From Lytechinus pictus (lineage: Eukaryota): DNA of 64,000 bases. The stretch lies in contig NC_087250.1 in the NCBI RefSeq assembly GCF_037042905.1, positions 6,884,001-6,948,000 on the forward strand. The letters are read 5' to 3'. The notes beneath the pieces are model-generated. The model was not told the DNA's origin, did no database searches, and saw only the letters and a program-made list of their open reading frames with translations. Position 1 is the stretch's first letter; the number at the start of each line of letters is the position of its first letter. Made by a program: the position numbers and the translations under genes. Shown piece after piece: positions 2,735 to 42,801 of this stretch.

Positions 2735-2877
2735 AATAATAATAATAATCCGCTTTTACATAGCGCTTAATCAATCGGAACGACGTGTCTGAGCGCTTTA
2801 CAGATATATTATTACCCCGATCGTCGGATTCAATCAGTCATTCCCGCACACAATGTGTGCACATCCTCCATTCCCTA
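2735..2877 (-). mobile_element. Short retroposon (SINE or LINE) 3' end inserted in the LINE
   Basis: (AAT)n tail followed by ...atagcgct...agcgctttaca; interrupts RT homology right after LLLDKL. Confidence 0.5.
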
Positions 2878-4487
2878 CCATAAACTTTCTGTTCATGGTA
2901 TTTAAGGAAAGGAACTTGAGTGGTTCAGTTCATACCTGAAAGGCAGAACTCAACGAACATGTGTAAAATGGGTATAATCTGAAATTATAGAAGTGAGTAG
3001 TGGGGTTCCCCAAGGGTCTATCTTGGGGCCACTCTTATTCTCAATCATGGTAAACGATATTACCAAGGTTGTAGATAAGTGTGAAATCGTGTTGTACGCA
3101 GATGATGCAGCTCTTATATATAGTGGTACACATACTCAAGAAATTGAATCTGTCATGAATGAAGATCTACACAAAGTGAATCGTTGGTTAATGCATAATC
3201 ATTTGGTACTCAATTTAACAAAAACCCAGTACATGCTTTTTGGAACCCAACAAAGACTCAAGAATTGTGATCTAAACATCGTCATTGAACAACATAGAAT
3301 TGAAAGAGTGTCTAATTTTAAATATCTCGGAGTACATTTTGATGAACAACTCACGTGGCGAAGTCATATAAACGATACCAGTAAAAAAGTTGCGTCTAGA
3401 CTTGCACTTTTTGCTAGATTACGGAAGTACATGAGAGTTTCAAGTGCTAAACTATTGGCAAATTCATTAGTTTTACCGCATCTCGAATACTGTTGCAACG
3501 CCTGGACCAACTGTAACCAAAACTTAAAGGACACTTTGATAAAACAGCACAAACGAATGGTTCGACTGGTCTTGCAGGTAGACTTTATTACACCTACTGC
3601 CATGGGCGGAAATCCCAGGGGGACGTGTCCCCCCCCCCCCTACTCAAAATAGTAGGGGGACACAATATCAAATGTCCCCCCTACTATTTCTGGTCTTTTA
3701 TGATGGTAAGAAATACATCATTCTAAATCGAAATAAAAACATGTAGTATTTTCGGACGAGATTACCTTACTTTGGCGATGATAACCTTTTTTTTTGCTTG
3801 TCAAATTTTCCCGCCCCTTGTTCCCATAGGCGGATCCAGGGGGCCGAGGGACCCGCCATCTCCCCCCTCTTGGCGGAGCGAAAAAAGAAAAAAGAGAAAG
3901 AAAGAAGGAAAAAGGAGGGAAAAGAGAAGAAAAAAGAAGAGAAGGACGACAATGCATAAAATAAGATGAGGGGAAGTCTTGGAAAATAAAAAGAATCTTT
4001 CGTGCCACTATATAAAATTTTCGCTTGCTCTTCGCGCTCGCATTGCCTCTAAGGTGATTTACATATCTTGTTCAAGATATGGAGTTCTAATATCAAGTTT
4101 GGAAGTCAACATACAAAACATATTTCACCTCGGAAATCGAACTTTCATTATTTTGTGCAATTTAAAAAATGGTTTTTAAAAAGTGCTCTGTAGAAATGTC
4201 AGATATATGGTCTGAATGTTAACATTTGCTGGTTGTGCTGCGCGCTCGCAAATTTTGGTTTATCAGGTACCAATTATTTTCGTGTATTCCATAAAGTTTT
4301 CAAAATATCCCTTTTTAGGTCTGATTGTCAAGACGTATCGGGTAGCGCGCTGCACGCTCGCATTTTGATTGGCGAGTTATATAAATGTTTCAATATTAAT
4401 TATACAACAAATTACTTAAAATCTCCTTTTTCACAGTTATTGTTTCGTCTACAGGATAGTTTTCCCATTTCGTCAATTAAAAAAAAA

Positions 4488-4825
4488 TGAATACAGTACC
4501 AGTCACAGGTCTTTGAATCACTATTGCCTGTTTCGGCCGGAGAGCAATGGATTTGGTCCACTGATTCTATTGTTCTCTGGCTGAGGCAGGTAGTGCTGAG
4601 TCTGGGAATTTGTGACTGGTAGTGTATTTTATCTTTAAACAATTTGGTATTAGTGATAATTCTGATTTTAAATGTTATTGAATTCACTCATTGCTGTACA
4701 GAACCGAAGTTACTCTTTTATCTATTATGTATATATTGTTTTTTTATGTTAACAGGATCAGGCTGAAAAACAGTCATTCTGAGCCTGTTATCCTGTATAA
4801 AGATATTTTAATAAATAATAAATAA
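4488..4825 (+). mobile_element. Probable LINE 3' end fragment
   Basis: Ends in an aataaataataaata tail preceded by the hairpin acaggatcaggct...agcctgttatcctgt. Confidence 0.4.
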
Positions 4826-4986
4826 TTTTTTATGACAGTTAATAAAATAATTTAGCTCGCGATTTGCGCTCGTATTGATGGTTAAAAAAAAATTAATTGA
4901 TGCATCCTATTTATAATCACAAAAAATGAAATGTTCAATTTTAATGCCATGATATCATCAGATTTCGCGCCCTCATTAGGCATTAA

Positions 4987-5568
4987 ATGAAACCAAAACC
5001 CAAGAAGAGAAGCAATCTTATTGGAAAGAGTAAAACGAGAGGAACAATTTTAAAAAAGTTTCATCAAAATCGGCTATGAAATAGGCAAGTTATGGACGAT
5101 CAAAAAGTCTTGTTGTACTTACTATGGGCATCCTCAAATTGACAAACGTGCTTCAAAATGGCTGATTTTGTGGACAACTCTCCATTTGTTTTGTACACAT
5201 ATTTTCAGATTTTCCCCCTTTATTTTACATATTTCACATTATCTCCGCCTGACCTTGACATATATGGTGTGGATTATATTTTCCCATGACATATGTTGTG
5301 CTCAGAAGGAGGAAAGATGCAATTTGAAAGATAAAGGGGGAAAATCTGAAAATATGTGTACAAAACAAATGGAGAGTTGTCCACAAAATCAGCCATTTTG
5401 AAGCACGTTTGCCAATTTGAGGATGCCCATAGAAAGTACAACAAGAGTTTTCAAACTCCCATAACTTGCTTATTTCAAAACCGATTTTAATGAAGCTTTT
5501 TTTGGAATTGTTCCTCTCATTTTACTCTTTCCAATAATATTACTTCTCTTCTTGGGTTTTGGTTTCCT
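4987..5568. mobile_element. TTAA-flanked MITE (Kolobok-like), copy 1
   Basis: Nearly fully palindromic, ends a(t/g)gaaaccaaaacccaagaagagaag / cttctcttcttgggttttggtttcct, TTAA on both sides. Purine termini fit Kolobok rather than piggyBac. Confidence 0.8.
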
Positions 5569-6108
5569 TTAATAAATATATCAATTTAATAATTAAATTG
5601 TCCCTTTTGTTTCATATCGCGCTTAGCAAGAGGAATAGGAAGATAGTCATCATTTTCATATGATGACATGTCGTAAAGATGTCCCGGTCCTAAAATACCT
5701 AGATTCTAGGTCTAAATATGAAACACGCTCGCGCATGTTTATTCAGATACTCAACTTGTTCTCTAATTTAAATAAATTCTCCAGTTTCAGGTCACAATAT
5801 CAAAAAATTTCTGCTCGCGCTTTGTGCTCGCATTATTAATATAGGAAGACCCATATTACTCATCCTTTTGATGATTTACAAAACATGAACAGAGTGGCCC
5901 ATTTTTAGGTCTAAATCTCGATTTTTTTTTCTGCTTGCGTTTCGTGCTCGCATCAATCGTTGACTTATACAGCTATCCTGTTCACGATTACAAAAACTGA
6001 TTAAAATGTTCCATTCTTTCTTTAGAAAGTTCAAAAAATTTTGCACTCGCATTTTTTTGATAGCTGAAATATGTAACGCCGTCATGGCTAAGTGCACGCA
6101 GTACTTAA

Positions 6109-6689
6109 AGGAAACCAAAACCCAAGAAGAGAAGTAATATTATTGGAAAGAGTAAAATGAGAGGGTCAATTCAAAAAAAGTTTCATAAAAATCGGTTATG
6201 AAATAAGCAAGTTATGGGAGTTTGAAAACTCTTGTTGTACTTTCTATGGGCATCCTCAAATTGGCAAACGTGCTTCAAAATGGCTGATTTTGTGGACAAC
6301 TCTCCATTTGTTTTGTACACAAATTTTCAGATTTTCCTCATTATCTTTCAATTGCATCTTTCCTCCTTCTGAGCACAACATATGTCATGGAAAAATATAA
6401 TCCACACCATATATGTCAAGGTCAGGCGGAGATAATGTGAAATATGTAAAATAAAGGGGGGAAATCTGAAAATATGTGTACAAAACAAATGGAGAGTTGT
6501 CCACAAAATCAGCCATTTTGAAGCACGTTTGCCAATTTGAGGATGCCCATAGTAAGTACAACAAGACTTTTTGATCGTCCATAACCTGCCTATTTCATAG
6601 CCAATTTTGATGAAACTTTTTTTAAAATTGTTCCTCTCATTTTACTCTTTCCAAAAAAGATTGCTTCTCTTCTTGGGTTTTGGTTTCCT
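6109..6689. mobile_element. TTAA-flanked MITE (Kolobok-like), copy 2, inverted relative to copy 1
   Basis: Near-identical reverse complement of 4987-5568; TTAA at 6105-6108 and 6690-6693. Confidence 0.85.
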
Positions 6690-9600
6690 TTAACAACTAC
6701 CTTTTCAAAAGGTACTAGTTCAAAACATATATAAAAAATTTCTGCTCGCGCTTTGCGCTTGCATTATTAATAGTCATCCTTTTCAGGATTTACAAAACAT
6801 GAATAAAGTGTCTCGTTCAGTGAATATTATAGGACTAAATCTCGAAATTTTCCGCTTGCGCTTCGCGCTCGCATTAATTGTTTACTTATACTTATATACC
6901 TATTCTGTTTGAGTTACAAAAAGTGCTTAAGATTTCCATTCTTTAGGAGAAACTGTAAAAAAAAATCAGTTCGCACTCGCATTATTTGATTGTTAAATGC
7001 TACTTTAACAGGTATCTTTTCCATGAGTTCAATTCTGCTCGCGCTTTGCGAACATGGTAATTATTAAGTTGGATACACATCTTTTTCAGGATAACAAACA
7101 TTGCCCAGAGTCAGTTTAATTTTTAGGAAAAAATACATTAAATTTCAAAAAAAAATTGCTCGCGCTTCGCTCTCGCATCATATAAATAAGGATTATGATA
7201 TTATATATTAATTTATAAGAATAAAGGTAAGAAGTGACTAATGAGGACTACCCCTTCAAATAAACAAACAAAAATCCTCATCGAGCTGCCGATCGGGGGA
7301 AATATGGCTGAAAAAAAATTGAGATCGGCGAAGGCTGGATCCGCCCCTGTGTTTCCCCTACTTTTTGGAAGAGATTTCCGCCCCTGCCTACTGCAGTAGT
7401 GTTTGGAAGATTAAATTGGGTACCACTTGAAGAACGATGGCGATTTCAAATGTGTTTCAACTATGTTTAATTCTATGCAGGGCGAAGCCCCAGGTTACCT
7501 CTTAGAATTGTTCCCGAGATTTAGTTCTGTCCATTCCCATCATACAAGAAATGCATTGAACCGTGGAATCTTGGTTCCACGGGCACGCACCAAAGCTGGT
7601 AAAAGAGCCTTCTCCCATCACGGTGCGTGCCTGCGGAGCCAACTTCCTAATGAAGTTAAAAAATCCACGTCGAAATCTTCCTTTACATCGTCATACTGGA
7701 GGTATAGATACCCCCATTTTAATATATAAGCAAGAATTATATTTTCAGACTATACTATTATTTCATTATAGTGTAAATGGTGATGTGCCTTCTTCTCCCG
7801 CTTTAGCTCTCTCCTGTGTTCTTTTTTAACCTCAACTCATCCATACTTTCTATCTTTCGTTCCCCTATTACTTTTTACTTGTAGCTTTGGGTTAAATTAT
7901 TGTTCTCAATTTCACACACAATTTTTTGTTATTAGATTTATACTTAAAATTTCCATCTGCTTATGTTCAGGATTTGTATTTTTCATTTGTATTGTATATA
8001 TGCTTGTATTTTTTTTATCATGTTATACAGGGCCCCAGGTACAACAGTATTTGACTACTGATGGGGTTACCCTGTATAAATAATACCAAATAAATAAATA
8101 AATAAAAAAAACTTGTAATTATTCAAATCGTTTTAAGACATGAAATCCATTTTTCAATCAAGAGGTTATCGATTCCTTGACCAAATTCAATTATATGCTC
8201 GACAGGACAAACGGGAAGGAATTAATTTATTTCAATGGCATTGGTGTATTAGGTCATTTTTTAAGGAGCTAGATATGGTAGATCGGAAAAAAACGTATTA
8301 AAAAGTTGTGAGCGAACAAAGCGAGCACGCAAATATTCCCACTTTTTCATTACAATATCAAATGTTGTGGTAGATTTTAAACATAATATTCAAAAATAAT
8401 ATCATATTTTACATTTTATCTTTCTTTTTATTTTTACCACTTTTGTCTTGGTCATGATTTTTTTTCATGAAGGGGGGGGGGGGGCGGGAGAGGGGTATCA
8501 TTCCCGAGCCTCCGCTCATCTGTATGGCACTGTTTAAAAGGCACAATAATCTTTGTCGAACACAATGAAAGGATCTGAAAAAAAATACACTAAGAGTGTT
8601 TTGCTTTTATGCAGGAATATCTTTTTAGCTCGCGCTTCGCTCTTGCATTATTCGATGCATTCTATTTAGTTATAAGTAACTAAACGCAGTCCTAATTAGG
8701 AACCTTTTCTTGTCAGTATATTTCAGCTCGCGCTTTGCGCTCGTCATAACCATTTAGTTAGATGCACATCTTTTTAATTATTGTAAAAACAACTCAACAT
8801 GTTTTATTTTCATTTTTTATTGAAATTTTCCAAGAATTTGAGCATGCAATTCACGCTCGCAACACCTCCCATGGATGCCCTTTTAGCATTAATTGACCCA
8901 CCTCCCCCCCCCCCAAAAAAAAAGAAGAGTTTTACAACATCAGCTTTTAATTTTTTTCCAAACCGCTCACTCGTTACACTTTCTCGCGAAAAATAAAGTC
9001 TAAATATATCTTACCATAATCAGAAATCACTTCAAAAAGGCTTTGCTCTACTTTCCTTTTCTTTGCTCCGCCGCCCTTCTTTTTTGCCTTCTTTTTGCCG
9101 CTTTTTTGGCCTTAACCACAAACGGTGAGGACCTATAGCTGACTTCAAAAAGGATATTCTAAGCACAGAATGAAACAACGAAGAGGATGAAGATCTCACT
9201 AAACAAATCATTCGAGCGTGAAGCGCAAGTATTAAAGAAAAACAATGTCATGAATATTGAATGTCTAAACATAATTTGTAAGAGTAAACAGGATATCATA
9301 TTTATTCATTAGTAATACAAAAAAGGTATATGAAATTAATTTGAATACTCATTGTATTGATTCAAGCAATTTTGCGCCGTGAATTTTTTTTTTCATTTTG
9401 GGGCACTTAGGATTCAAATTTAGATCTGGCTCCCAGATTCGGTATTTTTCTTATGTTTATTGACAAAAAGTATTTAGAAATTCTATATTAGAAGACAACT
9501 TATAGGCCTATAGATCAAATACTGAGATTTTAATTTAATCCAATGATTGAGAAACCCTTTTAAAAGACAAGACAAGATTACGCAGGGATTTTATGCATCC

Positions 9601-10054
9601 TTTTTTTTTTTGTATTAAAGTTTGATGTAAAATGGGTAAATTTGTCGATCAAACAATTTTTTAATCTTTAATACTTCACACCACAACCGTTTTGGTGCAA
9701 ATGCATTAAAAAGATATGGCAATAAAATGGAATAATGACATGTCATTTGGGGATGGGAAGTTTACCCAAACTAAACACTTCCATTTTTTAATCTATTTTA
9801 TAAAAAAATGTATATACAGTGTATTACTTGGTTTTTCTTTTTCAAATTAGCGTATATTTTCAAGCGTCTAAATAATAAATAAAATAAATCACGTTTAATT
9901 CTAGGATATCGTTTTTTTTTCTAAAATAACTATATAGTTTCTTTTAACGAAATGCATGAAAGGTGTGAAGAAAAGTCAGAACCCAGAATTAGTTCATGTA
10001 TCATTTATTTGCGCTGTAATTCTTATCCAGCTTTTCTATTCTATTTTCCTTCAG

Positions 10055-11600: not shown

Positions 11601-11899
11601 TCTCCTTATACATGTAGTAAAGCGGATAAGCTCCAAAAAACACAACAATTGTACAAATTTTGACTAAAGCATGAAACTTTCACAAATATTAGTATATATG
11701 CCGTAGAAATTATTTTAAAGATGGGAGGTGAATTTATAAATGCCATTTTCGGCCGTTGCCATGGCAATGAAATACTTTCTCCAAAATAACATACATTCCC
11801 ATGTAAGCGGTAAATAAACATGATATAAACTACCAAAATTATAATTTTTCAGGCTCCCAATTGAATAAACATAAAATTTAGAAATATTCAAGATCACCC

Positions 11900-13240
11900 A
11901 TGGCATGGCAACGGCTTGTTTTTCACCAGAAAAATAAAAAAAATTGATTAAAAAGTTGTAGAATATGATTTATCTTTAATTTCCCCTAATGTTACAGTGC
12001 AAAACAAATATATTTTCTTTGCCAAATGTGTAAATTACACCTGAAGCAATTGCCATTGCAACCAAATAACTTCTAATTTACAAAAATAGCATGGTTGACA
12101 AGACAATGGACAGGTGGAAAATACAATTGGAATTGACTTAAACTGTATGCTTAAGTTTTGACCCCCTCATTTGAACAAAAAAATACAGAAAGTGTTCTGC
12201 AGGAATATTTTATGAAGATAAAAATTATGTTGCCTTGGTAATGCTTGAATTAAATTTACAAAGCAACAATCATGCAAAGGTCCTGTTGCCATGGCAACAG
12301 CTTGTTTTCCTCTAGAAAGGTAAAAATATTTATAGAAATGTAGAATACATGTATGATCATCATTCCATTTTCCCTAATTTTAAGGTACTAATCGAGATAT
12401 GTATGTGACTAAATTTATAAATATAACATCTTAAGCCATTGCCATGACAACCAGATAACATCTATTTAAAAAAACAGCATGAATGACAAGGTTATGGACA
12501 GGTGAAAAATACAATGAAAATATCTTAATGTACATGCATAAGGTTAAACTTTCTCAATTAATATAGAGGAAATTTAATACAGTGAGTGTTCTGCATGAAC
12601 TAAATATAATGAGAGACATTGATTTTGCCTTGGTAATATTTGAATTCAACGATAAATATCAATGTTCCAAATCGCCTGTTGCCATAGCAACGGCTCATTT
12701 ACCCAAGAAAAGTACCAGTTTTGATAAAAAGAGACTGTATAATCTGATTTTTCTTTCATTTCTCCTATTATTAGGGTAAGAATGTATAGCTTTGCTGTTA
12801 ACATTCAAATAACATCTAAAGCCATTGTCATGGCAACCAAATACTATATAATTTGACAAAAAAATAATATGGTTGACACGTTAATGGACAGGTGGAAATG
12901 CAATTCATAATAGTTAACACAAGGTTTGACCCGTCATTTAATTTTGGAAAAAAATACAGTGTTTCCCATTAGTTTATTAGAATGATGAAATTTGAGGTTG
13001 CCTTGGTGATGCTTGAATTTAATGATAAATATCAATGTAGCATATTGCCCGTTGCCATGGCAATGAATCCTTTTTTCCCCAAGAAAGGTACAAAATATGA
13101 TCGAAAAACAGTTTAGAATCTGCATTTTGTCATAAATTTCCACTAATTTTAGGAGGCAAAGCATATATATGTTTGCTGTTGATATACACATAACTTAAGA
13201 CTTAAAGACATTGCCATGACAACCAAATAACAACTCATTT
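11900..13240. repeat. Diverged ~385-bp subterminal tandem repeat, about 3.5 units, ~3 X-box-like palindromes per unit
   Basis: Equivalent gttgccatggcaac-type motifs at ~11900, 12285, 12678 and 13051; ggacaggtg recurs with the same period. Confidence 0.7.
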
Positions 13241-13384
13241 CAGTGGCTTAATTCAAGATAATTTATTTTCTATTTTTTCCATTTATTTTCTAATTTGGTT
13301 TCTATGCAATGGTTTTAAGGGTGAAGTAGTACATTAGGACTAGTTACAAGGACAGCCAGTGGTCTGATGGGTCCAGAACCCTAA

Positions 13385-16300
13385 TAGTGGGGTGGCTAAG
13401 GGGTTTTACCGTTACAGAGCGGATAAAAGCACCATTTTTGGCACAGAGCTTCCTTATGGACTAACTTTTGATTTTAGAAGGGGAGCCACCCAAATCGGGT
13501 TCGTCTTCGACCGTTGCCATGGCAACGGATTAATTTCTCAAAAACCACATATATACCCCTGTAAATGGTAAATAAACATGGTATAAATCATTCAATTTAT
13601 CAATTTCAAGCTTCCAATTAATTACAAGTGAAATTTACAAATATTTGAGGTCATCAAAACAGTTCCAATTACCCCGTTGCCATGGCAACCACTCATTATT
13701 CACCTAGAAAAGACCAAATTTTTATAATAAAATTGTAGATTTTGACTTTTCTTTCATTTACTTTCATTTCCCTAACTTATGGTGCTTAACATATTATAGC
13801 AGTGCTCATTTCTATGTATATATATCATCTTAGGCCATTGCCATAGCAACCAAATATCACCTAATTTGCTTTAAAATAACATGATGAAAGAATATGATGA
13901 CGTAAAATGCAAACAAAAATTACCTCATCTACATGCGTAAGGTTTGAAACAGTCATTTAATTTTTGACACATTCTACGTACAGTAAGCATTCCACATGTG
14001 TTCATTAGAATGGCAAAACTTGATGTAACCTTGGTAATGCTAGAGTTCAATATTAAATATTTGTGTCAAATTCCCCGTTGCCATGGTAACAGCTATTTTT
14101 TTCTCCAGAAAGGTAAAAAATTCTTCAAAAACATGCAAAATCTGATCTTTCTCTCATTTCTGCTAATTTTAGAGTACTATAGTACTTAACAGAGGAGTGG
14201 TTGTTTCTTAATATTTAGATATCATCTCAAGCCATTGCCATGGCAACGAAATAACCCCTAATTTGCCTAAAAATATGACACAGTGAGAAAGATGATAGTT
14301 GGGGAAAAAATGGCCTCATCTACATACCTCATTTGACCCCCTCATATAATTTATAATGTAAATAGTACATGGTAGTGTTTTTCATTGATTTTACGAGAAT
14401 GATAATACTGCATGCATGTTGCCTTGGTAACATGCAGTGCTTGTTTCTAAATGTATATATATCATCTGTTAAAGTTAAGTAACAAATACCCTAATAATGT
14501 TTCAAATGTCCCATTGCCATGGCAATGGCTCATTTTTCCCTAGAAAAGTTCAATTTTTGAAGAAAAAAATAAGCATGTAGAATCTGATTTTTTTTTCATT
14601 TCCATTGAATTAAGGGTGGAAACATATATGCTTATTGTTGAATGTAGGAATTGCCATGACAAATAAAAAATAAATGAGCTTCCTCAATTGACTAACTTTT
14701 GATTTAGAAGGGGAGCCACCAAAACTGGAAATGGGGTAGACATGCATGGAGGGGGTGACCCATCCACAGTACGGAAATACATTTCATGCCCATCTGAATA
14801 ACTTCTCTATCCATTTCAGTTACTAAGGCATTTATTATACATAAATTACTGCACATCATTAGACATTAGGACTGCATTACTTATTTTAGGGGAGGGGCCC
14901 TGCCCATGCCCCCTAATCCTTTTTTTTCTATATGCCCATTGGTATTAAAATTTCACCATCAAAATCTATCAAAAATATATCAAAGCCTATCAAAAAGAAA
15001 GTTGAGATAGAATATAGAACTTTGATGAGTTTTCAAACCACATTTATTTGCTGAAGTATATATAAAGAAATGAGGAGTTTTAAGCTTGACCTCTAATCAT
15101 GATGACCTCATTTTGCTACATGATGGAAAGGATAGTGTAGCCTACATCCTCTTCACAGAATACGAGACATGATACTGACTGTGAGCCGCCACTCCCCATC
15201 TACATTGGCATCAATTTGCATGCACAGACTAGAAGCAAGAAGCTTATCCAACAGCTTTACAACATGGGTATCAGCATTTCATATGAGCGTGTTCTGCAAA
15301 TCGAAGACTGGATCGCAACAGCAGCTTCTGAACGCTTTGAAGAAGATGGTGTTGTTGTTCCTGCATCCCTCCGGAAAGGCATTTTTACAGTTGGGGCCTT
15401 AGACAATCTGGACCACAATCCTAGTTCAACCACTGCTGTAACTTCATTTCATGGGACAGGAATAAGCTTGTTCCAGTTGCCATCTGAAGATAAACCTGGG
15501 GAAAGAAGACCACCAATCAAGATACCACCTACTGGAAAAAAAAGATCTCATATTCCAGACAGTTACGCATCTGTTCCAGCAGTGGCTTTGAAGACAAGAC
15601 AAGCTCAGTGAGTGTACCAAAACGCGACATGTATTCCATTGATGCCACGTTAGGTGATGCATTTGAAGAAGAAAATGAATGGATAAAGCATGCAGAGTCT
15701 CTTTTAGAGAAGGATGAAATCGACCATGATGATACCATCACATGGGCTAGTTATCACTCATCAAAGCAGTCACAAAAAGAAAACCTGCCAGCCAGACATG
15801 CAGTTCTCCCTTTGTTTTGTGAGAAGTCTACAACACCAGCTATGATAAAGCATGGAATGGACGTCCAGAAACATGCTATTGAATATCTCAATCCAGGACA
15901 AATTCCTGTGACTACATTTGATCAGCCTCTCTTCGCCTTGGCAAAATGTGTGCAATGGAAATGGCCAGAGACCCATGGTGAAAATAAACATGTGGTTATG
16001 CTTGGTGGGCTGCACACAGAGATGGCTCTTTGGAGCACACTTGGTGATATCCTCGAATGCTCTGGGTGGACAACAGCTTTAGCCGATGCCCAAGTGGCAT
16101 CTCCTGGAGTAGCAGATTCTTGTCTGAAAGCTTCACATCTCATGAAGACAAGATCACATCAATGCACATCAAGTCACTCTCATTGCATTGAATAAGTTGC
16201 AAGAGGAGGCTTTTCAGTTCAGATCAGGCCAAAGTGATGACACTCCATTTGCAGTTTGGAAGGATCAAATGATGAAGCAAAGTCCTACATTCAAGTACTG

Positions 16301-19300
16301 GGAGCAAATAAGGAGATATGAAATTCTCATTCTCATCTTCATCCGGGCACACAGAGAAAGGAACTTCCAAATGTATGTCAGAGTTTTAGAAGAACTCACT
16401 CCACTCTTCTTTGCCTTTGACCATACCAATTACGCCAGATGGACACCAGTACACATACGTGACATGAAATCACTGCCAGATGGAATCAAGGAGGAGTTTG
16501 AGAATGCGGGTAACTGGGTTCTTTCCAAGACATCCAACAAGTTTTCTGCAATTCCATTCGACCAGGCTCATGAGCAGGAGAACAAAACTGTGAAAGGTTC
16601 GGGTGGGGCAGTAGGGATCTTCGAAAACCCTGCAGCCTTGAGGAGATGGATGTTTTCAGGACCAGAGCTAGCAAGGATGATCATGGAGTTTCAAGAAGAT
16701 TACGCACCAGAAGGAGACAATCAACCAAACGGACACAAGCACCATGATCAAAGTCCCTCAGCTAACAAGACATACTCCAAACGTCACCAACTTGACTAAC
16801 ACGGTCCAAAACATGGGAAATCAATTTCTGGATGAATTTGATGACCTCATTACTCTTGACACACGAATATGTGCAGATGACTCAGTTGTGAATACTGTGC
16901 AAAGGTGGGAAGACACTGGAAAGAAACAGTACGAAGAGTTTGTCACGAAAGTGCTTGTTGAGGGGACTCAATCCATCCATGACCCAATCAAGAGGAATTC
17001 ACTAGCACTCTTTAGAAAAGGTCGACAGAAGACAACCCAGAAGAAGGAGAAGAAAATCAAAGTTCTTCAGAACAATGTGTCCCTCTTTGGTCAACTGTAC
17101 ATTTCTATGCAGAGTCGCCAAGGTGACTTAGACGAATTCTTCGCTCATGAAGTGCAGCCATTCCCTCCTTCCCTTTCCGAATTCGGCAAACTCTACCTTC
17201 CTGGTACCAAGTCAGATTTGTTGCAATGTATTGAGCAGCCAGAGCAACAGGATCCACCTTCAAAATTCTGCTGCAAGATATTGGATGGAGCTGTTCTTGC
17301 ACATTCTCTTCCTGTGATGGGTGTCTGTACATTTGACAACTATGCAGAAGATGTCTTCCTGCCATATCTTGAGAAACAGCTAAGAAACACAGAGAGGTTA
17401 GATCTGGTATGGGACTCGTACATTGCAGGCAGTTTGAAAGAGAGTACCCGAGATAAGAGGGGGACTGATGTTCGGAGGAAAGTGTCTGGGCAAAGTAAAT
17501 TACCAAGTAACTGGATGGGGTTTCTACGAGATGAACGAAACAAGCAAGAGCTGTTTGACTTCCTCACAGCAAAGATCGAGGGGTTCAACTGGCCAGCAAA
17601 AGAGTGTCAATGTAACTTCAAAGGAAAATGTATCATCTTCAGGCTCATATAGAATGGATCAATGCAACCATGAAGAGGCAGACACCAGGATAATCGTCCA
17701 CATGGTTCACGCACTTCAACAAGGAGCAGAGAAACTAATGGTGAGAACAGTAGACACTGATGTCATGGTAATAATTATTGGTAAATTCCATGAGCTTCTG
17801 AAAATTCGACCTATAGCAGAAATATGGGTGGCTTTTGGAATGGGAAAGAAGTACAGGTATTACACTATAAATTCCATCTGCCAAAATCTTGGTCCATCAA
17901 AATGCCAAGGACTCCCTGTATTCCATGCTTATTCAGGATGTGACACAACATCGGCATTTCGTGGAAAGGGGAAGAAGTTAGCTTGGCAAGCTTGGCAGAA
18001 CTTTGAAGAGGTAACAGAGGCATTCACCTTCCTAGCCAAACATCCTTTCCAAATGCTGGATCCTCAGTCTGAGACTTTCCAAATGCTGGAGAGACTAACG
18101 GTAGTTATGTATGACAAGTCTAGTCGTCTGAGTCAAGTCAATGATGTGAGGAAACATCTCTTCTGTCACATGAATCGTACGATAGACAAACTGCCTCCTA
18201 CTCAGAATGCACTCCTTCAGCATATTCGGAGAGCTGTATATCAAGCAGGAGTCTGGACAACAAGTACTCAGTCTCAACAAGCGATACCATCTCCAGAAGA
18301 CTATGGGTGGACCATGAATGCAGGGTCTTGGACTCCAGTATGGATGACAATTCCAGAGGTCTCCAAAGCATGCAGGGAACTGATAAAGTGTTCATGCAGA
18401 GGAAACTGCTCTAACTGCACATTTACCCGTGCAAATTTGAATTGCTCTCCCCTCTGCAAATGAAGTTATTTTCAGGAATACCTGAATCAAAATGCCAAGA
18501 GTATTCGGTGAGTGTTTATTTAGTCATCTTAAATCAGTGTCTCAAACTTTAGGCATGTAGATTACAGTGTCGGTAATTTTGTTGCTTTTCCACCATTAAC
18601 TTTTTCACCTTGGTATTTTATTTTAGGGGTAAGGTGTTATTTGGTTGTCACAGCTATGGCTGAAGATGATCGAAATTTACACATGTAGCAACAAGCAACT
18701 CTATTGTTAAGCACCCTAAAATTAGTTGAAATGAAAGAAAATGCAGATTCTACATGTTTTTTAATCGAAATTTGTACTTTTTTGGAAAATTGATCCATTA
18801 CTATGGTAACGAGGCATTTAAAACATAAGTATTTATTATTTAACTATAACGTTGCCAATGCAACATCAAGTTTTATCATTCCAATGAACTCGATGCAGAA
18901 AACTTTCATGTACTGTTATTTGCATAAGATATTATATGAGTGGGTCAAACGAGGTATGTACATGTAGATGAGGCCATTTTTCCCCAACTATCATCTTTCT
19001 CACTGTGTCATATTTTTAGGCAAATTAGGGGTTATTTCGTTGCCATGGCAATGGCTTGAGATGATATCTAAATATTAAGAAACAACCACTCCTCTGTTAA
19101 GTACTATAGTACTCTAAAATTAGCAGAAATGAGAGAAAGATCAGATTTTGCATGTTTTTGAAGAATTTTTTACCTTTCTGGAGAAAAAAATTGCTGTTAC
19201 CATGGCAACGGGGAATTTGACACAAATATTTAATATTGAACTCTAGCATTACCAAGGTTACATCAAGTTTTGCCATTCTAATGAACACATGTGGAATGCT

Positions 19301-19912
19301 TACTGTACGTAGAATGTGTCAAACATTAAATGACTGTTTCAAACCTTACGCATGTAGATGAGGTAATTTTTGTTTGTATTTTACGTCATCATATTCTTTC
19401 ATCATGTTATTTTAAAGCAATTTAGGTGATATTTGGTTGCTATGGCAATGGCCTAAGATGATATATATACATAGAAATGAGCACTGCTATAATATGTTAA
19501 GCACCATAAGTTAGGGTAAGTTAGGGTAAATGAAAGAAAAGTCAAAATCTACAATTTTATTATAAAAATTTGGTCTTTTCTAGGTGAATAATGAGTGGTT
19601 GCCATGGCAACGGGGTAATTGGAACTGTTTTGATGACCTCAAATATTTGTAAATTTCACTTGTAATTAATTGGAAGCTTGAAATTGATAAATTGAATGAT
19701 TTATACCATGTTTATTTACCATTTACAGGGGTATATATGTGGTTTTTGAGAAATTAATCCGTTGCCATGGCAACGGTCGAAGACGAACCCGGTTTGGGTG
19801 GCTCCCCTTCTAAAATCAAAAGTTAGTCCATTAGGAAGCTCTGTGCCAAAAATGGTGCTTTTATCCGCTCTGTAACGGTAATCCAAAAAATTGACCCTTA
19901 GCCACCCTACTA
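13385..19912 (+). mobile_element. AcademX-type DNA transposon, internally deleted and frameshifted
   Basis: Termini tagtggggtggctaag / cttagccaccctacta and 3-bp TSD TAA (13382-84, 19913-15). Near-identical ~950 bp TIRs. Coding remnant has transposase-like, XPG/FEN1-like and Cys-rich regions, the architecture described for AcademX. Confidence 0.85.
15140..18463 (+). pseudogene. Academ transposase-XPG-Cys-finger polyprotein pseudogene (about 4 frameshifts, N-terminus missing)
   Basis: Consecutive ORFs 15216, 15608, 16188, 16744 and 17468 in different frames. Motifs GISISY, ALDNLD, TFDQPL, GGLH, NYARW, DQAHEQ; then ILDG, VWDSY, HEEADTR, DTDV, GCDTTSAF (FEN1/XPG-like); and C-terminal CSCRGNCSNC...CSPLCK. 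Confidence 0.85.
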
Positions 19913-19957
19913 TAAGACGGCTTCAAAAAAATGAAGTTTGAAATGGCTGTTGATATA

Positions 19958-20807: not shown

Positions 20808-22354
20808 TTTATAAATGGACATAGCTCATTTCATATCCGTCTCGGATATATGATTTTGGTGTTTAGACCATGGTTTCAATAGTCAAATAATACAATATGA
20901 CAAATTAAACGGACAGTCAGTTGTCCAGTTGTTCAAAAAATCCAAGATGGCTTCCAAAAATGGAGTAAAAAATAGCTGTTGCTACATTAAAAAACACGTA
21001 GTTTGATTAATATCCTGGAATATGTTTATGCCATGGTTAAATGGGTCAAACAATACATTAGGACAAATTACAAAGACAGTCAGTGGTCAAATATGTCCAA
21101 AAATCCAAGGTGGCCTCCAAATATGGAATATAAAATGGCCCCTGTTACTAACAAATGGACATATTTCGTGTAATATCTGCCAAGGGTATATCATTTTGAA
21201 TCTAAACCATGGTTTTAAAAGTCATTAAATACATCATGTACATTGGAACAAGTTACATGGACAGTCAGTAATCCAGTGTGTCTAAACATCCAAGATGGCT
21301 TCCAACAATTGCAGTCTAATCGGAGTCTGTTACTTAAAAATTGACATAATTTATTTAAAATCCACCAAGGAAAAACGATGTTGGTGTTCACACTTTGGTT
21401 TCAAATATAAAAAAATTAGTTGAGACTGGTTACAATGATATCCAGTTGTCCATTTTGCCTAAAAATCAAAAAGGGTTTTCAAAATGGCATGTACAATGAC
21501 TTCTATCACTATCACTTTCATTAGGACAAGTAACAATGATGGTTAGTTTTCAGTTTTGTCGAAAATCTAAGGTAGGTTTTAAAATTACATACTAATGGGT
21601 GCTGTTACCAACTCTTATCTGCTTGCATTTTGAATGTAGGCACCAAAATTATCTCTCACAGGTGGATATTATATCCACTTCAAAGTAATGGTCTTCATTT
21701 TCAGAACCCATTTATGGAAGCCATCTTAGATTTTCAGGAAAAATGGACAATTGTAACCAGTCCTAAAGTATAATTTGATCCTTGAAATCCTAGTGTAGAC
21801 ACCAAAATAACATCCCCAGGTTTATTTTTAATGTACTAGGTCCACTTTTAAGTAACATTATAAAAACCCATTTTTCAAGCCATCTTTGAATTTTTCGACA
21901 CAATTGACACCTGACTGTCCTTTCAAATTGACCAAATGTACAGTTTATATTACTTGACCCTTTGAATACTAGTGTAGACACCAATCATATCCCAATAGTA
22001 TATTATCAGTGAACTATATGTCCATATTGAAGTAACAACAGTCAATTTAGACCCCTTTTTGGAAGCCATCTTGGATGTTTTAACATACCAGTCCACTGAC
22101 TGTCCTTGTAACTTGTTCTTATGCATTAAACCATGGTTTTATGATTGTGGTTTATATGAGGCGCCGAATGTACCAATATTATATAGAACAATTATTTGTT
22201 ATATAATCATTATTTATTAAATAATAACTATTATTTATATATAATTTACATTTTATTTGTAAATAACTACTATTATATAAAATATCATTTCTAATTATTT
22301 ATATATAATTCCAAGTAATACTTCATTATTTGTAAATAATAATAGTTCGACATT

Positions 22355-22745
22355 CCATTATTTATAAATAATGATTATTTGTTTTTCATTATTTATAAAT
22401 AATGATTATTTGTTTTTCATTATTTATAAATAATGATTATTTGTTTTTCATTATTTACAAATAATGATTATTTGTTTTTCATTATTTATAAATAATGATT
22501 ATTTGTTTTTCATTATTTATAAATAATGATTATTTGTTTTTCATTATTTACAAATAATGATTATTTGTTTTTCATTATTTATAAATAATGATTATTTGTT
22601 TTTCATTATTTATAAATAATGATAATTGGTTTTTCATTATTTATAAATAATGATTATTTGTTTTTCATTATTTACAAATAATGATTATTTGTTTTTCATT
22701 ATTTATAAATAATGATTATTTGTTTTTCATTATTTATAAATAATT
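22355..22745. repeat. 31-bp AT-rich minisatellite (~12 copies), left arm
   Basis: Unit cattatttataaataatgattatttgttttt, containing the 18-bp palindrome cattatttataaataatg. Confidence 0.9.
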
Positions 22746-25684
22746 TGTTGAGTTTTCCATTATTTATAAATAATGATTATTTGTTAAATAATGAAAACGT
22801 CTACTTCATTATTTATAAATAATTTTTTCGAGTGCACCATTATTCTCATTATTTATAAATAATCATTATTTAATGTTCGAGTTTTCCATTATTTATAAAT
22901 AAAGATTATTTGTTAAATAATGAAATATCTACTTCATTATTTATAAATAATAATTTTGTTTCAATATCCCATTAATCATTATTTATAAACAATTTTTACA
23001 GTTTGCCATTATATACAAATAATCATTATTTATATACAAATAACCATTATTTATTAAATAATGCCATTATTTATTAAATAATGCCATTATTTATTAAATA
23101 ATGGAAAACTCGCTATAACATGCAAATGTGGGACCGCCCATGATATGAATATTCATGATGCGATTTCCTTTTTCGTAATTTTTCTTCACAAATTTTTGTC
23201 CATTTCCTCTTCATAATGACATTTCTTGAAGCAATTTTCTAGGGATATGGTCTGATTGTAATATTCTTCATTTTCTATATAACTTCGTCTTCGTAGAAAT
23301 ATCAAAAAGTGTAATTTTATACGATTTTTCCTACAGTTCACAATCCCCATAGGCGCGCGTGTACGGTAGGGACAACCGGTGAATCGACGGAGTGCTCTTC
23401 ATCGAAATACTACGTTGGTTGGTCCCCGGAAGTGGCGGGCGGAATTTAGCCCGAATCCTCGATGGAAGTCGATCAAGTGCATATGAGCTGAGAGAGTGAA
23501 ATATCAGTGTACTTGTACAGGCCCTTCTACTTTTTATAAATATTTCTTGTTGCTTTTTTTGTTAAGTTAATTTTTCCTGGTGTAGAGATAAGTTTCAGTT
23601 CTAATAATGCACTTCAAATACATTTTGGAGTGTCTGTTTGAGGCGTTTGGGGCGATTTCACCCTGGCCCCAAAATGCTCGCAACGACAATACGGGGGCAT
23701 GATGACCCCTAAATTTTTAAAAACTTATTTTTCTATTGAAAATTATCACAAAATTCACCAAAAGTGTGCACGAAAGCCTTCGTATTTCACTTTTAAAACT
23801 CCAAAAAGTGCCCAAATGACAAGCTTGGTCGCTTCGCTGTGTCGCTTTCAACTTGAGAAAGTTTACGCGTCTGCTTCCCCCCCCCTCCTCCGAAAGAAAT
23901 TATGTATACGGCCATGCTCTAAAGAGCCTGGCACATTGATTTATGTATACTTCATTTTCATTATTTTTATCTCATTATCATCATGGCCTTACGCAGAATT
24001 TTTTCCGGGGGGGGGGGGGTGGGGGGAGCAGGACGCGCGTAAACTTTCTTATAAAAATCTTGAAAAAGCGAAGCGACCAAGCTTGTCATTTGAGCTTGGT
24101 CGCGTCGCTGTCTCGCTTTCAAGATTTTTTTGAGAAACTTTACGCGCGTCCTAGCTGCTCCCCCCCCCCCCCCGGTAAAAATTCTGTGTAAGGCCATGAT
24201 GATAATGTGATAAAAATAATGAAAATGAAAAGTACATATAAATCAATGTGCCATATGCTCTTTTGAGCATGGCCGTTCACAGAATTTCTTTCGGGGGGTG
24301 GGGGCAGACGCGCGTAAACGTTCTCAAGTTGAAAGCGAGACAGCGAAGCGACCAAGCTTGTCATTTGGGCTTGGTCCCGTGGCTGTCTCGCTTTCAAGAT
24401 TTTTTTGAGAAAGTTTACGCGCGTCATGCTCCGGCCCCCCTGGAAAAAATTCTGCGTAAGGCCATGTTGATAATGAGATAAAAATAATGAAAATGAAAGT
24501 ATACATAAATCCATGTGCCGGGCTCTTTAGAGCATGGCCGTATACAGAATTTCTTTCGGAGGAGGGGGGGGGGGATATATCGAAGCAGACGCGTAAACGT
24601 TCTCAAGTTGAATGCGACACAGCGAAGCGACCAAGCTTGTCATTTGGGCACTTTTTGGAGTTTTAAAAGTGAAATACGAAGGCTTTCGTGCACACTTTTG
24701 GTGAATTTTAAAAATTTAGGGGTCATCATGCCCCGCGTATTGTCGTTGCGAGCATTTTGGGGCCAGGGTGAAATCGCCCCAAACGCCTCAAACAGACACT
24801 CCAAAATGTATTTGAAGTGCATTATTAGAATTGAAACTTATCTCTACACCAGGAAAAATTAACTTAACAAAAAAAGCAACAAGAAATATTTATAAAAAGT
24901 AGAAGGGCCTGTACAAGTACACTGATATTTCACTCTCTCAGCTCATATGCACTTGATCGACTTCCATCGAGGATTCGGGCTAAATTCCGCCCGCCACTTC
25001 CGGGGACCAACCAACGTAGTATTTCGATGAAGAGCACTCCGTCGATTCACCGGTTGTCCCTACCGTACACGCGCGCCTATGGGGATTGTGAACTGTAGGA
25101 AAAATCGTATAAAATTACACTTTTTGATATTTCTACGAAGACGAAGTTATATAGAAAATGAAGAATATTACAATCAGACCATATCCCTAGAAAATTGCTT
25201 CAAGAAATGTCATTATGAAGAGGAAATGGACAAAAATTTGTGAAGAAAAATTACGAAAAAGGAAATCGCATCATGAATATTCATATCATGGGCGGTCCCA
25301 CATTTGCATGTTATAGCGAGTTTTCCATTATTTAATAAATAATGGCATTATTTAATAAATAATGGCATTATTTAATAAATAATGGTTATTTGTATATAAA
25401 TAATGATTATTTGTATATAATGGCAAACTGTAAAAATTGTTTATAAATAATGATTAATGGGATATTGAAACAAAATTATTATTTATAAATAATGAAGTAG
25501 ATATTTCATTATTTAACAAATAATCTTTATTTATAAATAATGGAAAACTCGAACATTAAATAATGATTATTTATAAATAATGAGAATAATGGTGCACTCG
25601 AAAAAATTATTTATAAATAATGAAGTAGACGTTTTCATTATTTAACAAATAATCATTATTTATAAATAATGGAAAACTCAACAA

Positions 25685-26074
25685 ATTATTTATAAATAAT
25701 GAAAAACAAATAATCATTATTTATAAATAATGAAAAACAAATAATCATTATTTGTAAATAATGAAAAACAAATAATCATTATTTATAAATAATGAAAAAC
25801 CAATTATCATTATTTATAAATAATGAAAAACAAATAATCATTATTTATAAATAATGAAAAACAAATAATCATTATTTGTAAATAATGAAAAACAAATAAT
25901 CATTATTTATAAATAATGAAAAACAAATAATCATTATTTATAAATAATGAAAAACAAATAATCATTATTTGTAAATAATGAAAAACAAATAATCATTATT
26001 TATAAATAATGAAAAACAAATAATCATTATTTATAAATAATGAAAAACAAATAATCATTATTTATAAATAATGG
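25685..26074. repeat. 31-bp minisatellite, right arm (reverse complement)
   Basis: Mirror image of 22355-22745, including the variant units. Confidence 0.9.
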
Positions 26075-28084
26075 AATGTCGAACTATTATTATTTACAAA
26101 TAATGAAGTATTACTTGGAATTATATATAAATAATTAGAAATGATATTTTATATAATAGTAGTTATTTACAAATAAAATGTAAATTATATATAAATAATA
26201 GTTATTATTTAATAAATAATGATTATATAACAAATAATTGTTCTATATAATATTGGTACATTCGGCGCCTCATAGGTTTAGGCATCAAAATCATATTTCC
26301 CAGACAGATATTGAACAAAATATGTCCTAATCTATTATTTGACCCTTGAAACCATGGTTTAAATATCAGAATCACATCTCACAGGCGGATATAGAATGAG
26401 CTATGTAAATTTTTAAGTAACAACAGTCAATTTTAGACCCAATTTTTGTAAGCCATCTTGCGTTTTTTTAACATACCAGACCACTGATTGTCCTTGTTAC
26501 TTTTCCTAATACATTACTTCACCCTTTAAACTATGGTTTAGACACTGAAGTAATATTCCCCTGACAGATATTGATCAAGCAACATTAGAGATTGTTTTAC
26601 ACCTTTTTTTGGAAGCAATCTTGAAATTTTGGACATACTAGACCACTGACTGTCCGTGTATATGGTGTAGCATGTCCTAATGTATTATTGGTCTTTGAAA
26701 TCATAGTTTAGAACCAAAATCATATCTCACAGAAGATTATAAAATGAGCTATTCCACTTTTAAGTATCAGCACCCATTTTTAGAGTCATTTTTGAATACC
26801 ATATTGGATTTTCGGACATACTTGTCGTTGTAACTTGTCCTAATGTCCTAATATTATTAGACTCTTGAAACCAATGATTTTGACACTAAAATCACATCCC
26901 CCAGGCTAATATGAAATGAGCTACGTCCGCTTTAGGTATCAGCAACCATCTTTGATTCAATTTTTTGAAGCCATCTTGGTTTTTTGGACATTCCAGACCA
27001 CTGGCTATCCCTGTAACTTGGCCTAATGTACTACTCCTTAAAACCAATGAATAGAAACCAAATTAAAGCCACTTTATCAAGTAATGGATGAATTGTGGAT
27101 TTTTAACCTACGGCAGCCATCTTTGATTTTCCTGTTACCCTGGAGTGCTTAAATTCTTTTTAACCTTTCAACCAGTAAGGGTATTTTCGATCGTATATTG
27201 ACAGGCCTACATATCATGTACAATAACCAGTGAATAAATTACACTTCATGTTGAATAGATTCATATGTTACTTTAAAAATTATCAGGGTATTTCAACATT
27301 TTCTTCGTCAAAATCAGTAGTGTAGTTTTGAGGGGGGTGTCTGGAAAACGAAGACCGAAGACCGAAGACCGGGGACTCATATCACACTCGTGTGAAAGCG
27401 TTTGTAGTTCACGCCCGAAGTGTGTACAAAGCAGTGCAAAGTGTGTACAAAACACGTGCGCGGGTTAGAATGGACTTTGGACCTTACCCGACACATGTTC
27501 TCCCATTGACAATGCACGGGTCCCCGGTCTTCGATCTTCGTTTTCCAAACCCGCTGTTGGGTGTCTGGAAAACGAAGACCGAAGACCGGGGATCGCATTC
27601 GTTTAGCTAAGATACCACTTATAAATGTCATTATGAAGGCCTCTATTATTCAGCTCAAATTCAAGAATATTCTGATCTAGAATACATTAATGTCATTAAT
27701 TAGCTGATAATGAAGTCATGTTAATTGCTAATTGTGTCAATAATTAGTATAGTTAGACCAGTTGAAGCGGGATAGGTCTCCCAGTTTTCACCACTATTCC
27801 ACTGAGACAAGTAACAAACTCCAGTAATCAATCAGACCAGTTTCAAATTTCCAGTTAAAGGTTAACTCTAGACCAGTAATTTCAGACCAGTTTAATTCTT
27901 AACTGGTCCAGTAAAGTGAACTCGACCAGTTAGACCAGTATGCCGTTTTTCCATTTTCCAGAATTACATTCTGTGAACTGGTTTTTCCTTAATTCTTAAT
28001 TGGCTGACATTAATTTGCAATTTTACTACCATTGACATAACACATGTCCCCGGTCTTCGGTCTTCGTTTTCCAAACCTGTTGTT

Positions 28085-34000: not shown

Positions 34001-34103
34001 GGCCTATAATATTCAGCACCAGTTCAAGAATATTCTGATCTTGGATACGTCATCAGCTATGATTGGCTGCCGAAAAGTTATGGTTATTTGTGTGAATATC
34101 GTT
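28085..34103 (+). repeat. ~388-bp tandem satellite, 15 full units plus a partial, with a 2349-bp 6-unit higher-order duplication
   Basis: Recurrent pseudo-ORF starts at 28232, 28620, 29008, 29397, 29788, 30175, 30562... Pairs 29397/31746, 29788/32137, 30175/32524 and 30562/32911 are all offset by 2349. Confidence 0.95.
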
Positions 34104-41171: not shown

Positions 41172-42801
41172 GTTTTGAGGGGGCCAGATACATGTATGAG
41201 AGCCAGATATCGAGAAAAAATCCTTTGAAACAGTTGTCAGCGAGTCCAGCGAGAGAGCACAACTTTCGAAATTTTTCAATGCAACAATAAAATTTGGTAA
41301 AAGAGTTTGGGTATAATATTCGTAAAATAATCATATTTCATCAATCTCTCTTTCACTTTCTCTTTATTGGTAATGATTTATTTAGGGGGGAGTAGGGTTG
41401 CACAATTTCCCGGGAATTTTCCATGGGAATAAACGGGAATTTTGTGGGAATTTCTTGAATTTTTGGAAATTTTCAGGAAATTTCAAGAAATGATGGTTAT
41501 TTACAAAAAAGTAACAATTTTCTGATAATTATATGCATGAATTGAAAGGCGTACCATAAAAAATGATGCTTTCCAACATTGTTTGTTATTAAATTTAATT
41601 CAAGCATTACCATGGCAACATAATTTTTATCTTCATAAGATATTCCTGCAGAACACTTTCTGTATTTTAGTTCAAATGAGGGGGTCGAAACTTAAGCATA
41701 CGGATTAAGTCAATTCCAATTGTATTTTCCACCTGTTCATTGTCTTGTCAACCATGCTATTTTTGTAAATTAGAAGTTATTTGGTTGCCATGGTAATGTC
41801 TGTAGATGTTATTTACACTTTTAGCAACCACAATACATTTGTTTACGAACTTGAAAATTAGGGGAAATCAAAGCTAAATCATATTCTTTTTTTATATTTT
41901 TTATTTTTCTGGGGTAAAACAAGCCGTTGTCATGGCAACGGACCAATTGGAACTATCTTGGTGATCTTGAATATTTCTTAATTTCATATAAATTCAATTG
42001 GGAACCTGAAAATTATCATTTTCGTCGTCTATATCACGTTTATTTACCATTTACATCGGAATGTATTTTATTTTGGAGAAATTAATCCGTTACCATGGCA
42101 ACGGCCGAAAATGGCATTTATAAATTTACCTCCCATCTTTAAAATAAATATTGCAGCATACTAACACTTGTGAAAGTTTCAGGCTTTAGTCATAATTTGC
42201 ACAATTGTTCGGCTTATCCGCTCTACTATTACACCAAACTTAATATAAACACCCTTCAAGGGCTCAATAAATGATTAGCCTGTTTTACGTTATTTTAAGT
42301 TCAACAGTAGTTAATTCGATGATGCTTTCAGAATGGTTTTCTATCATCATTAGTCCAATGTATGTACATTCTCTTTAATTCTCTTATTCTAAATTCATAT
42401 CGCAATGACGTGATGACACATTATTGCAGATGACTATTCCCAACACTATTTAATTATGGTATTTGATATTAAACTAAAAACGAACCATATTCTTCCAGAT
42501 TTTTATTTTTTATTTATCTATTATTATTATTATTTTTTTTTTTTTTGGGGGGGGGCAATTCGAATGAAGTCTAACGTTGCTTTGTTTATTGCCTCCATGG
42601 CAACGGCGATTTTTCTTTCTTCAAGATATATCTGTTCTCTTATGGTTTATAGTTAATGGTTATAATAATGATACGAGTTACATATTGCTTGTAATGTGAT
42701 TCGAATTATATTTCTGATCATTATGATCACGATGATAACTCTATCAGTGATGTAATATATTTTGATCGCCAAATACATCTTTTCTGAAGCATCACACTGT
42801 A

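Follow-up and report, generated by a model that had tools for sequence, protein, structure and literature searches.

Results

The X-box-bearing elements of the locus

The stretch of DNA analyzed in this work (hereafter the window) comprises 64,000 nucleotides of the Lytechinus pictus genome (assembly GCF_037042905.1, contig NC_087250.1, positions 6,884,001 to 6,948,000 of the forward strand; all the positions given below are those of the window unless another locus is named). It harbors a young and complete DNA transposon of AcademX-like type, whose inverted arms are built of tandem units of about 390 bp embedding a palindrome identical to the X-box, the site bound by the RFX transcription factors. 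This element, which belongs to a family designated F1, extends over 13385..19912 on the forward strand (6528 bp), with the termini TAGTGGGGTGG.../...CCACCCTACTA. It is flanked by a 3-bp target-site duplication, TAA, with the left copy at 13382..13384 and the right copy at 19913-19915, and its two arms of about 900 bp (13406-14309 and 18977-19881) are 98-99% complementary. Each arm carries once a terminal module, TAGTGGGGTGGCTAAGG ... GGATAAAAGCACCA, located at 13385..13480 on the forward strand and, for the right copy, at about 19817-19912. The left X-box array lies on the forward strand at 13500..14700 (sites 13513, 13676, 13837, 14077, 14234, 14418 and 14513, plus weaker ones), and the right one on the reverse strand at 18630..19790 (sites 18851, 19039, 19196, 19436, 19598 and 19761). 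A broken transposase gene with shifting frames, lacking the N-terminal ~330-385 aa of its full-length relatives, is found at 15141..18463 on the forward strand; its last part (17438..18463, same strand) encodes a nuclease-like domain, in which the acidic motifs EEAD ... DTD occur, and then a CXC tail rich in Cys.

The preliminary description of this locus had attributed the whole of 11615-19912 to the terminal inverted repeats (TIRs) of a single element, thereby merging two: the young one at 13385-19912 and an older one at 11615-13240. The latter (11615..13240, forward strand) is the left end of an element of a second family, F3, with the terminus TAGTAAAGCGG and about four X-box array units; its identity is 84% with L004, a copy located on a different contig, and 62% with F1. 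It stops at about 13240 at foreign DNA, and it is into this foreign DNA that the young F1 element was inserted. An F3-like right-end fragment, with the terminus ...GCTCTACTA and four X-box-like sites, is present much farther along, at 41590..42228 on the reverse strand. Since the flanking triplets differ (TTA at this fragment and ATG at 11615), the two ends need not derive from one insertion; the two arms, which may or may not be the ends of one nested 30-kb element, are also only 69% alike.

Neither family is confined to the window. The genome contains no fewer than 10 F1 elements whose arms are 95-99% alike, and F2, the third of the arm families (about 72% identical), is common in it; both abundances are lower bounds, 40 of the 681-771 candidates having been scored. 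A full F2 element of 6.7 kb contains no open reading frame (ORF) of at least 120 aa. Contigs of two public sequencing runs, which by their appearance are low-coverage DNA and in which nothing but copy variants was seen, join position 14888 of the window to 15909 with five other letters in between; because they skip 14888-15909, a deletion derivative of the F1 element exists elsewhere.

Distribution and period of the palindromes

The perfect palindrome GTTGCCATGGCAAC occurs at 12285 (12285..12298), 13513, 13676, 19598 and 19761, that is, exactly at the five positions reported in the preliminary description, and it was absent from each of 100 shuffles of the window. When up to two mismatches are allowed, the window contains 25 sites against an expectation of 0.16 and a maximum of two in any shuffle, and all of them are confined to the intervals 11755-14526, 18851-19774 and 41606-42102. 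The near matches already pointed out at 11755, 12678, 13051 and 14077 were recovered among them, and a fifth one, listed at 41927, turned out to lie at 41926. The alleged presence of three sites in each unit of ~385-400 bp is likewise borne out: the repeat families in the arms recur every 386-397 bp, and each unit of ~390 bp embeds three site classes, namely class A (CCGTTGCCATGGCAACGG), class B (CCATTGCCATGGCAACCAAATA) and a weaker class C (GTTGCCTTGGTAAT). The sites are spaced by about 150-163, 181-191 and 54-56 bp, with the same spacings in other genomic copies, and the terminal-most perfect site is located 128 bp from the tip of the young element.

In the entire 812-Mb genome, 1852 perfect sites were counted, versus none for the reversed control sequence. 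Among the 50 distinct perfect-site places listed for the first contig, 31 have another one no more than 2 kb away.

Correspondence with the RFX X-box

The idea that the palindrome represents the optimal RFX X-box is supported by an exact 14-bp match to the published site. The 14-mer corresponds to the palindrome described as the classic site of Rfx (PMC3414849), and the motif selected for RFX4 by SELEX (systematic evolution of ligands by exponential enrichment) is CGTTGCCATGGCAACG (PMC5449588). The latter is the same 14-mer extended by a flanking C and a flanking G, and this 16-bp match is found in the class A and terminal sites.

We catalogued 93 sites lying within three mismatches of the optimum, corresponding to 186 half-sites. 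The sites fit the X-box consensus GTNRCC-N(0-3)-RGYAAC or the palindromic one; 21 of them are perfect, the strict form of the consensus is matched by 38, and 83 retain at least one RGYAAC half-site. At the level of half-sites, T2 and T3, and with them A12 and A13, show little or no variation, and C5 and C6 are kept in 93-94% of cases. The commonly observed changes include G4 to A, in 17% of the half-sites, which is allowed by the R of the consensus, and the likewise common C11 to T, allowed by its Y.

As regards the possible reader of these sites, exons encoding RFX DNA-binding domains (DBDs) are present at several loci of the host genome. One of them, a 64-aa exon on contig 11 (L005, positions 1498-1689), is 100% identical to RFX3 entries from sea urchins of three genera, and its identity to vertebrate RFX2/3 is 95%. 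Because of this 95-100% identity, the host RFX would be expected to have the same specificity and should be able to read the site.

Conservation of the motif among families

The claim that the motifs are better conserved than the sequence of the surrounding unit is borne out by a comparison of ten arms from three families, from which the short or truncated arms winOld_R and L003 of the 12 aligned were left out (copy-level statistics refer to all 12 arms). The between-family identity was 0.942 over 70 motif columns and 0.611 over the 823 other columns, the former being somewhat inflated by the tendency of MAFFT to anchor on identical words; the identity observed for the motif was not attained by any of 10,000 sets of 14-bp windows drawn at random. 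A small number of other blocks in the first unit are likewise kept (e.g., ATAAACATGGTATA). Since the conservation of the motif includes F2, whose full element is devoid of any ORF of 120 aa or longer, the constraint appears to be on a function exerted in cis.

One might suppose that no binder has been selected at all, and that a satellite-like repeat was captured in the arms, with concerted evolution, alignment bias or a DNA-structure effect such as a cruciform accounting for the retention of the palindrome. This scenario would account for the arms being tandem arrays, for the presence in the same window of other long-arm arrays of 387-bp units without X-boxes (see below), and for a decay of the motif that, within a family, is not clearly slower than that of its flanks. 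We nevertheless consider it improbable. Indeed, these 14 bp are retained at 94% identity and in the same register by three families whose overall identity is 53-69%, and the T2/T3 and A12/A13 positions lack, in 186 half-sites, the transitions that a neutral decay would have left; moreover, a 14-bp palindrome would be short for stable extrusion.

The transposase gene and its placement

In a tblastn comparison with the 1498-aa protein of the relative L013, the match of the F1 gene begins at residue 386, and in other F1 copies it begins at residues 328-369 of the relative P0121; the gene is truncated and broken in all the copies examined. Relatives are found across animals, where they are unnamed or labelled as CXC-domain proteins; the full-length ones are 1400-1545 aa long.

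In the nuclease-like domain, residues E79, E80, D82, D106 and D108 are invariant or near-invariant. A model of the C-terminal 341 aa (mean predicted local distance difference test, pLDDT, 76) was compared with known structures by VIA-align, and the best matches were XRN1 (Z 7.6 over 191 aa, with a root-mean-square deviation, rmsd, of 4.2), Rat1 (6.6), EXO1 (5.3), XPG (4.7), FEN (4.6) and GEN1 (4.1), with T5 exonuclease also among them and every Z below 8. The predicted fold, with these middling scores, is that of a PIN-like 5' nuclease. Foldseek against the PDB returned nothing at E<=0.001, a PDB sequence search returned nothing, and Pfam gave no XPG match for this domain. Its conserved EEAD and DTD motifs are compatible with a nuclease of the XPG type.

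Kapitonov and Jurka in 2010 and Kojima in 2020 are said to have described Academ proteins with an XPG nuclease; in the literature searched, Academ and XPG did not co-occur as whole words. The target-site duplications of AcademX are 3 or 4 bp long (PMC10045372) and the catalytic cores of Academ have no Pfam counterpart (PMC5751038). In our elements the duplications are of 3 bp, TAA/TAA in F1 and in an F2 element (L033) and TAG/TAG in the full-length relative L013. The sole Pfam match of these proteins is DUF6589, which exceeded its cut-off of 27 bits in one of six paralogous proteins, namely in L021, with a score of 28.1; in the literature searched, DUF6589 appeared in a single rust-fungus preprint.

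The position of the gene between the arrays raises the possibility that the X-boxes are an RFX-driven enhancer or promoter of the element's own transposase gene. There are sites on both sides of the gene, and RFX sites act near the promoters of cilia genes (PMC3414849). However, the best-kept arrays are those of F2, which lacks an ORF, and of F1, whose gene is truncated and broken, and the arrays are inverted in the two arms, so that this explanation appears very improbable to us.

The region missing from the F1 gene was modelled from the apparently intact L013 protein together with 18 relatives (pLDDT 76). In the full-length relatives it comprises two conserved C-C-H-C quartets and a predicted winged helix at residues ~205-275. 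When this helix was compared with 48,161 chains, the top match was the RFX1 DBD in its co-crystal with an X-box (1dp7_P; Z 6.5, rmsd 2.5, 67 of 76 residues), and RFX5 ranked third; the RFX match was tied within one Z unit with many unrelated winged helices, and Foldseek ranked other winged helices first, none of them being significant. In profile-profile comparisons (hhalign) of the N-terminal region with RFX DBDs the probability was 0.2%, and Pfam and PDB sequence searches gave no match. When this zinc and winged-helix region was searched alone in the genome (25 of 25 candidates scored), 15 matches were obtained, all in other families; none of the 15 falls at the known F1, F2, F3 or L014 loci of the assembly.

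Arms and palindromes of the relatives

The arrays had been described as a property of Academ TIRs. This assignment stands in part, in that the element fits AcademX both in its 3-bp duplications and in its predicted nuclease-like fold; an array was, however, found in one of the 20 paralogous loci of the same genome (28-53% identical in the nuclease domain), namely L014 (44-47%), and in none of the 80 loci (693 kb) that represent relatives in other organisms. The foreign loci contain seven scattered sites with up to two mismatches, against about 1.7 expected on scaling from the shuffle rate of the window. Inverted arms of at least 80 bp surround the gene in 12 of the 30 foreign loci with long flanks, and no X-box occurs in any of them. 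X-box arrays are thus not a general trait of this transposon clade.

In other members of the clade the arms are filled in other ways. The nearest intact relative, L013 (contig 8 of the same genome, locus positions 1856-9359), is 53-54% identical and has an apparently intact, uninterrupted ORF of 1498 aa; its termini, TAGTCAGGGGCCTTAG, match perfectly over 16 bp, and its arms consist of units of ~178 bp, each with one 22-bp near-palindrome, ATGCTAATTTATG[C/T]AAATTAGCA, and no X-box. Its right arm contains eight exact ATGCAAAT words, which are repeated in L031 also. The closest relative with arms, L036, lies on a metagenome contig from another organism; in its arms (3340-4300 and 9000-9650), clusters of AGGTCAAGGTCA about 160 bp apart take the place of X-boxes, and its terminus (TAGTGGGGTGGCTTAG...GGACAAAAGCACCAA) differs little from the terminus of the F1 element. 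In L049 it is the terminal module that is repeated, with a period of 150 bp. The L036 motifs may resemble the AGGTCA repeats of nuclear receptors, and those of L013 and L031 may resemble paired octamers.

Two further observations concern loci of related genes from other organisms. In the metagenome contig L068, a 144-bp tandem duplication at 3550-4100, 2.9 kb past the related gene, carries in each unit one near-perfect X-box-like palindrome (ATTGCCATGGCAAC and GTTGTCATGGCAAC), and in L111 a pair of degenerate X-box-like sites 144 bp apart lies 200-340 bp past the gene. Both pairs are too weak to be counted as arrays.

Modularity of the arms

The terminal module, with the form TAGT-N-GG...CTTAG followed by ...GGAYAAAAGCACCAA or by GCATGAAA as a variant, is found again in different species and families, once per arm. 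Positions 1-93 of F1 and the L036 terminus share 76% identity, and the F1 terminus has no BLAST match to the termini of F2 and F3; positions 118-896 of the F1 arm are instead 74-78% identical to the F2 and F3 arrays. Since the F1 terminus matches L036 while its array matches F2 and F3, the X-box array appears to be a module joined to three kinds of end. The array is not linked to the terminus, being common to F1, F2 and F3 despite their different termini, nor is it linked to the lineage of the transposase: F1 is closest, in both terminus and protein, to L036/P0121-type elements without X-boxes, and L013 (53-54% identical) has another palindrome while the more distant L014 (44-47%) has X-boxes. 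As in transposase-binding subterminal repeats, the motif is present in both arms, inverted, and retained in non-autonomous copies.

These comparisons bear on the possibility that the palindromes are bound by the transposase of the clade, acting in trans through a dimeric region made of the two zinc modules and the winged helix. The preliminary description had already offered a transposase-binding palindrome as its alternative, and this idea keeps some plausibility because the full-length relatives have an N-terminal winged helix. Several lines of evidence go in this direction: the C-C-H-C quartets and the confidently predicted helix in the relatives of 1400-1545 aa; the top fold match of this helix, which is to an RFX1 DBD on an X-box, with RFX5 third; the different palindrome that the intact L013 carries in each ~178-bp unit of both arms; the repetition of the terminal module at 150 bp in L049; the arrays and TAGTRG tip common to F1, F2 and F3, as a single mobilizing protein would need; and the precedent of subterminal transposase sites in other transposons. 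On the other side, the RFX match is shared with unrelated winged helices and is supported neither by Foldseek nor by profile comparison or Pfam, no X-box element found in the assembly encodes the N-terminal region, the arrays track neither transposase lineage nor terminus, and the closest relatives in other species are without arrays. On balance, we regard binding by the transposase, the main competitor of the explanation favored below, as rather unlikely; the same holds for its corollary, according to which the match to the X-box would be either a coincidence or the outcome of an RFX-like way of reading DNA.

Other features of the window

Upstream of the arrays, at 2320-3649, two ORF fragments match reverse transcriptase (RVT_1, E 1.7e-11 and 6.6e-17), in keeping with a decayed retroelement. 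A tandem array of 387-bp units (15.6 copies, 96% matches) occupies 28020-34103, and an inverted partner of 2.3 copies lies 4.6 kb away, at 38701-39596; the pair looks like another element with array-built arms. BLAST revealed no similarity between its units and those of the X-box arrays, and the ORFs between the two arrays have no Pfam match. At 22182-26238, mirror-image short tandem arrays (a 31-bp unit repeated 15 times at 22322-22785 and 25644-26107, and a 20-bp unit repeated five times at 23004-23103 and 25326-25425) flank a 275-bp repeat and are probably the arms of yet another inverted-repeat element.

The X-box arrays had also been placed in the intron of an immune gene. No immune-gene exon was detected with Pfam among the 21 ORFs of at least 110 aa and 60 of the 133 ORFs of 55-109 aa outside the elements, the sole matches being the RVT_1 fragments at 2320-3649.

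Discussion

A cassette possibly read by the host RFX

On the basis of the sequence comparisons described above, the explanation that we favor, with a probability of roughly 45%, is that the palindromes form a cassette bound by the host RFX and selected in cis. According to this model, the cassette would be a portable, subterminal structure made of units of ~390 bp with three RFX-type X-boxes each, lodged within the arms of AcademX-like DNA transposons that are non-autonomous or truncated at the N-terminus, on the inner side of the terminal module of ~100 bp that is probably what the transposase recognizes. It would have been kept because RFX dimers of the host bind the sites in vivo; a strong site every ~55-190 bp would keep the arms open in the cells where RFX is active, which might be the ciliated cells of the embryo and the flagellated sperm lineage, and open arms would in turn favor the mobilization of the element by a transposase acting in trans. 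The features that argue for this model are the exact 16-bp optimum, the conservation of the host factor, the modularity of the array, its retention in coding-free elements and the lack of a cognate N-terminal region.

A number of observations weigh against it. Eight to ten sites per arm exceed what a promoter needs, and in cut-and-paste transposons the repeats in subterminal position usually serve as sites for the transposase. L013 shows the same architecture with a different palindrome, as the coevolution of a transposase with its sites would predict, and the predicted winged helix of the full-length relatives could bind palindromes. The change of G1 to A, seen in 24% of the half-sites, is contrary to the consensus; since the flanking C places position 1 in a CpG, this change and that of C14 to T would be expected from CpG decay. 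Finally, within the young family the differences are about equally frequent in the motif columns (6/420) and in the flanks (102/4907), and because they are alike there is no sign of a constraint imposed by the host after insertion. Taken with the conservation among families, the pattern in these alignments suggests that the constraint acts during propagation rather than after insertion.

If the RFX cassette is placed in the wider context of the clade, it can be speculated that these transposons carry exchangeable cassettes, with units of ~150-390 bp, for different dimeric host factors (RFX in the present case), swapped in order to tie mobilization to germline or embryonic cell states, an extension that we consider doubtful. 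In a bolder variant of the same idea, the N-terminal winged helix of the clade would read DNA in an RFX-like manner, and the transposase and the host RFX would compete for the sites.

Comparison with known systems

The sites share with the X-boxes of cilia and flagella promoters the same 14-bp palindrome and the 16-mer of the RFX4 SELEX motif, and their half-site variants obey the R and Y of GTNRCC-N-RGYAAC. They differ in number and arrangement, a cilia-gene promoter having one nearby site, whereas here there are 8-10 sites per arm in tandem units of ~390 bp and 1852 perfect copies in the genome. The elements themselves resemble AcademX in their 3-bp duplications and in a long protein ending in a nuclease-like domain with fold matches to XPG, EXO1, FEN and XRN1. 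A description of periodic arm arrays in Academ was not found in the literature searched.

The arrangement is also reminiscent of the subterminal or inverted repeat/direct repeat (IR/DR) organization of transposons of the Ac, En/Spm and Sleeping Beauty types, in which a short motif is repeated at a regular distance in both long inverted arms; as with subterminal transposase-binding repeats, the motif would be needed in cis by non-autonomous copies. Unlike those repeats, the motif described here carries no orientation, because it is a perfect palindrome, it coincides with the optimum of a host factor, and it tracks neither terminus nor transposase lineage.

Another parallel, as regards dispersal, is a SINE (short interspersed nuclear element) subtype reported to disperse Nr5a2 motifs (bioRxiv 10.1101/2022.05.17.492379). 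In both cases a repeat family spreads many copies of a strong factor site; the case described here differs in that the sites lie in the arms of cut-and-paste elements and seem to be constrained for the propagation of the element itself. X-box arrays within the arms of transposons were not described in the literature searched, supplements and Repbase reports excepted, and the papers in it that contain the exact 14-mer do not deal with transposons.

Implications

The exchange of arrays between elements with different termini offers a concrete, testable example of the assembly of non-autonomous elements. If the arrays are read by the transposase, they would reveal a conserved two-part end, consisting of a terminal module and a periodic array of palindromes, for a poorly known superfamily. 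If, on the other hand, they are read by the host RFX, a cut-and-paste family would have spread about two thousand optimal RFX sites, and many more near-optimal ones, throughout this genome, and these sites could either form a sink or give rise to RFX-dependent regulation; the element would then be one in which a host factor, and not its own transposase, is the conserved reader of the arms.

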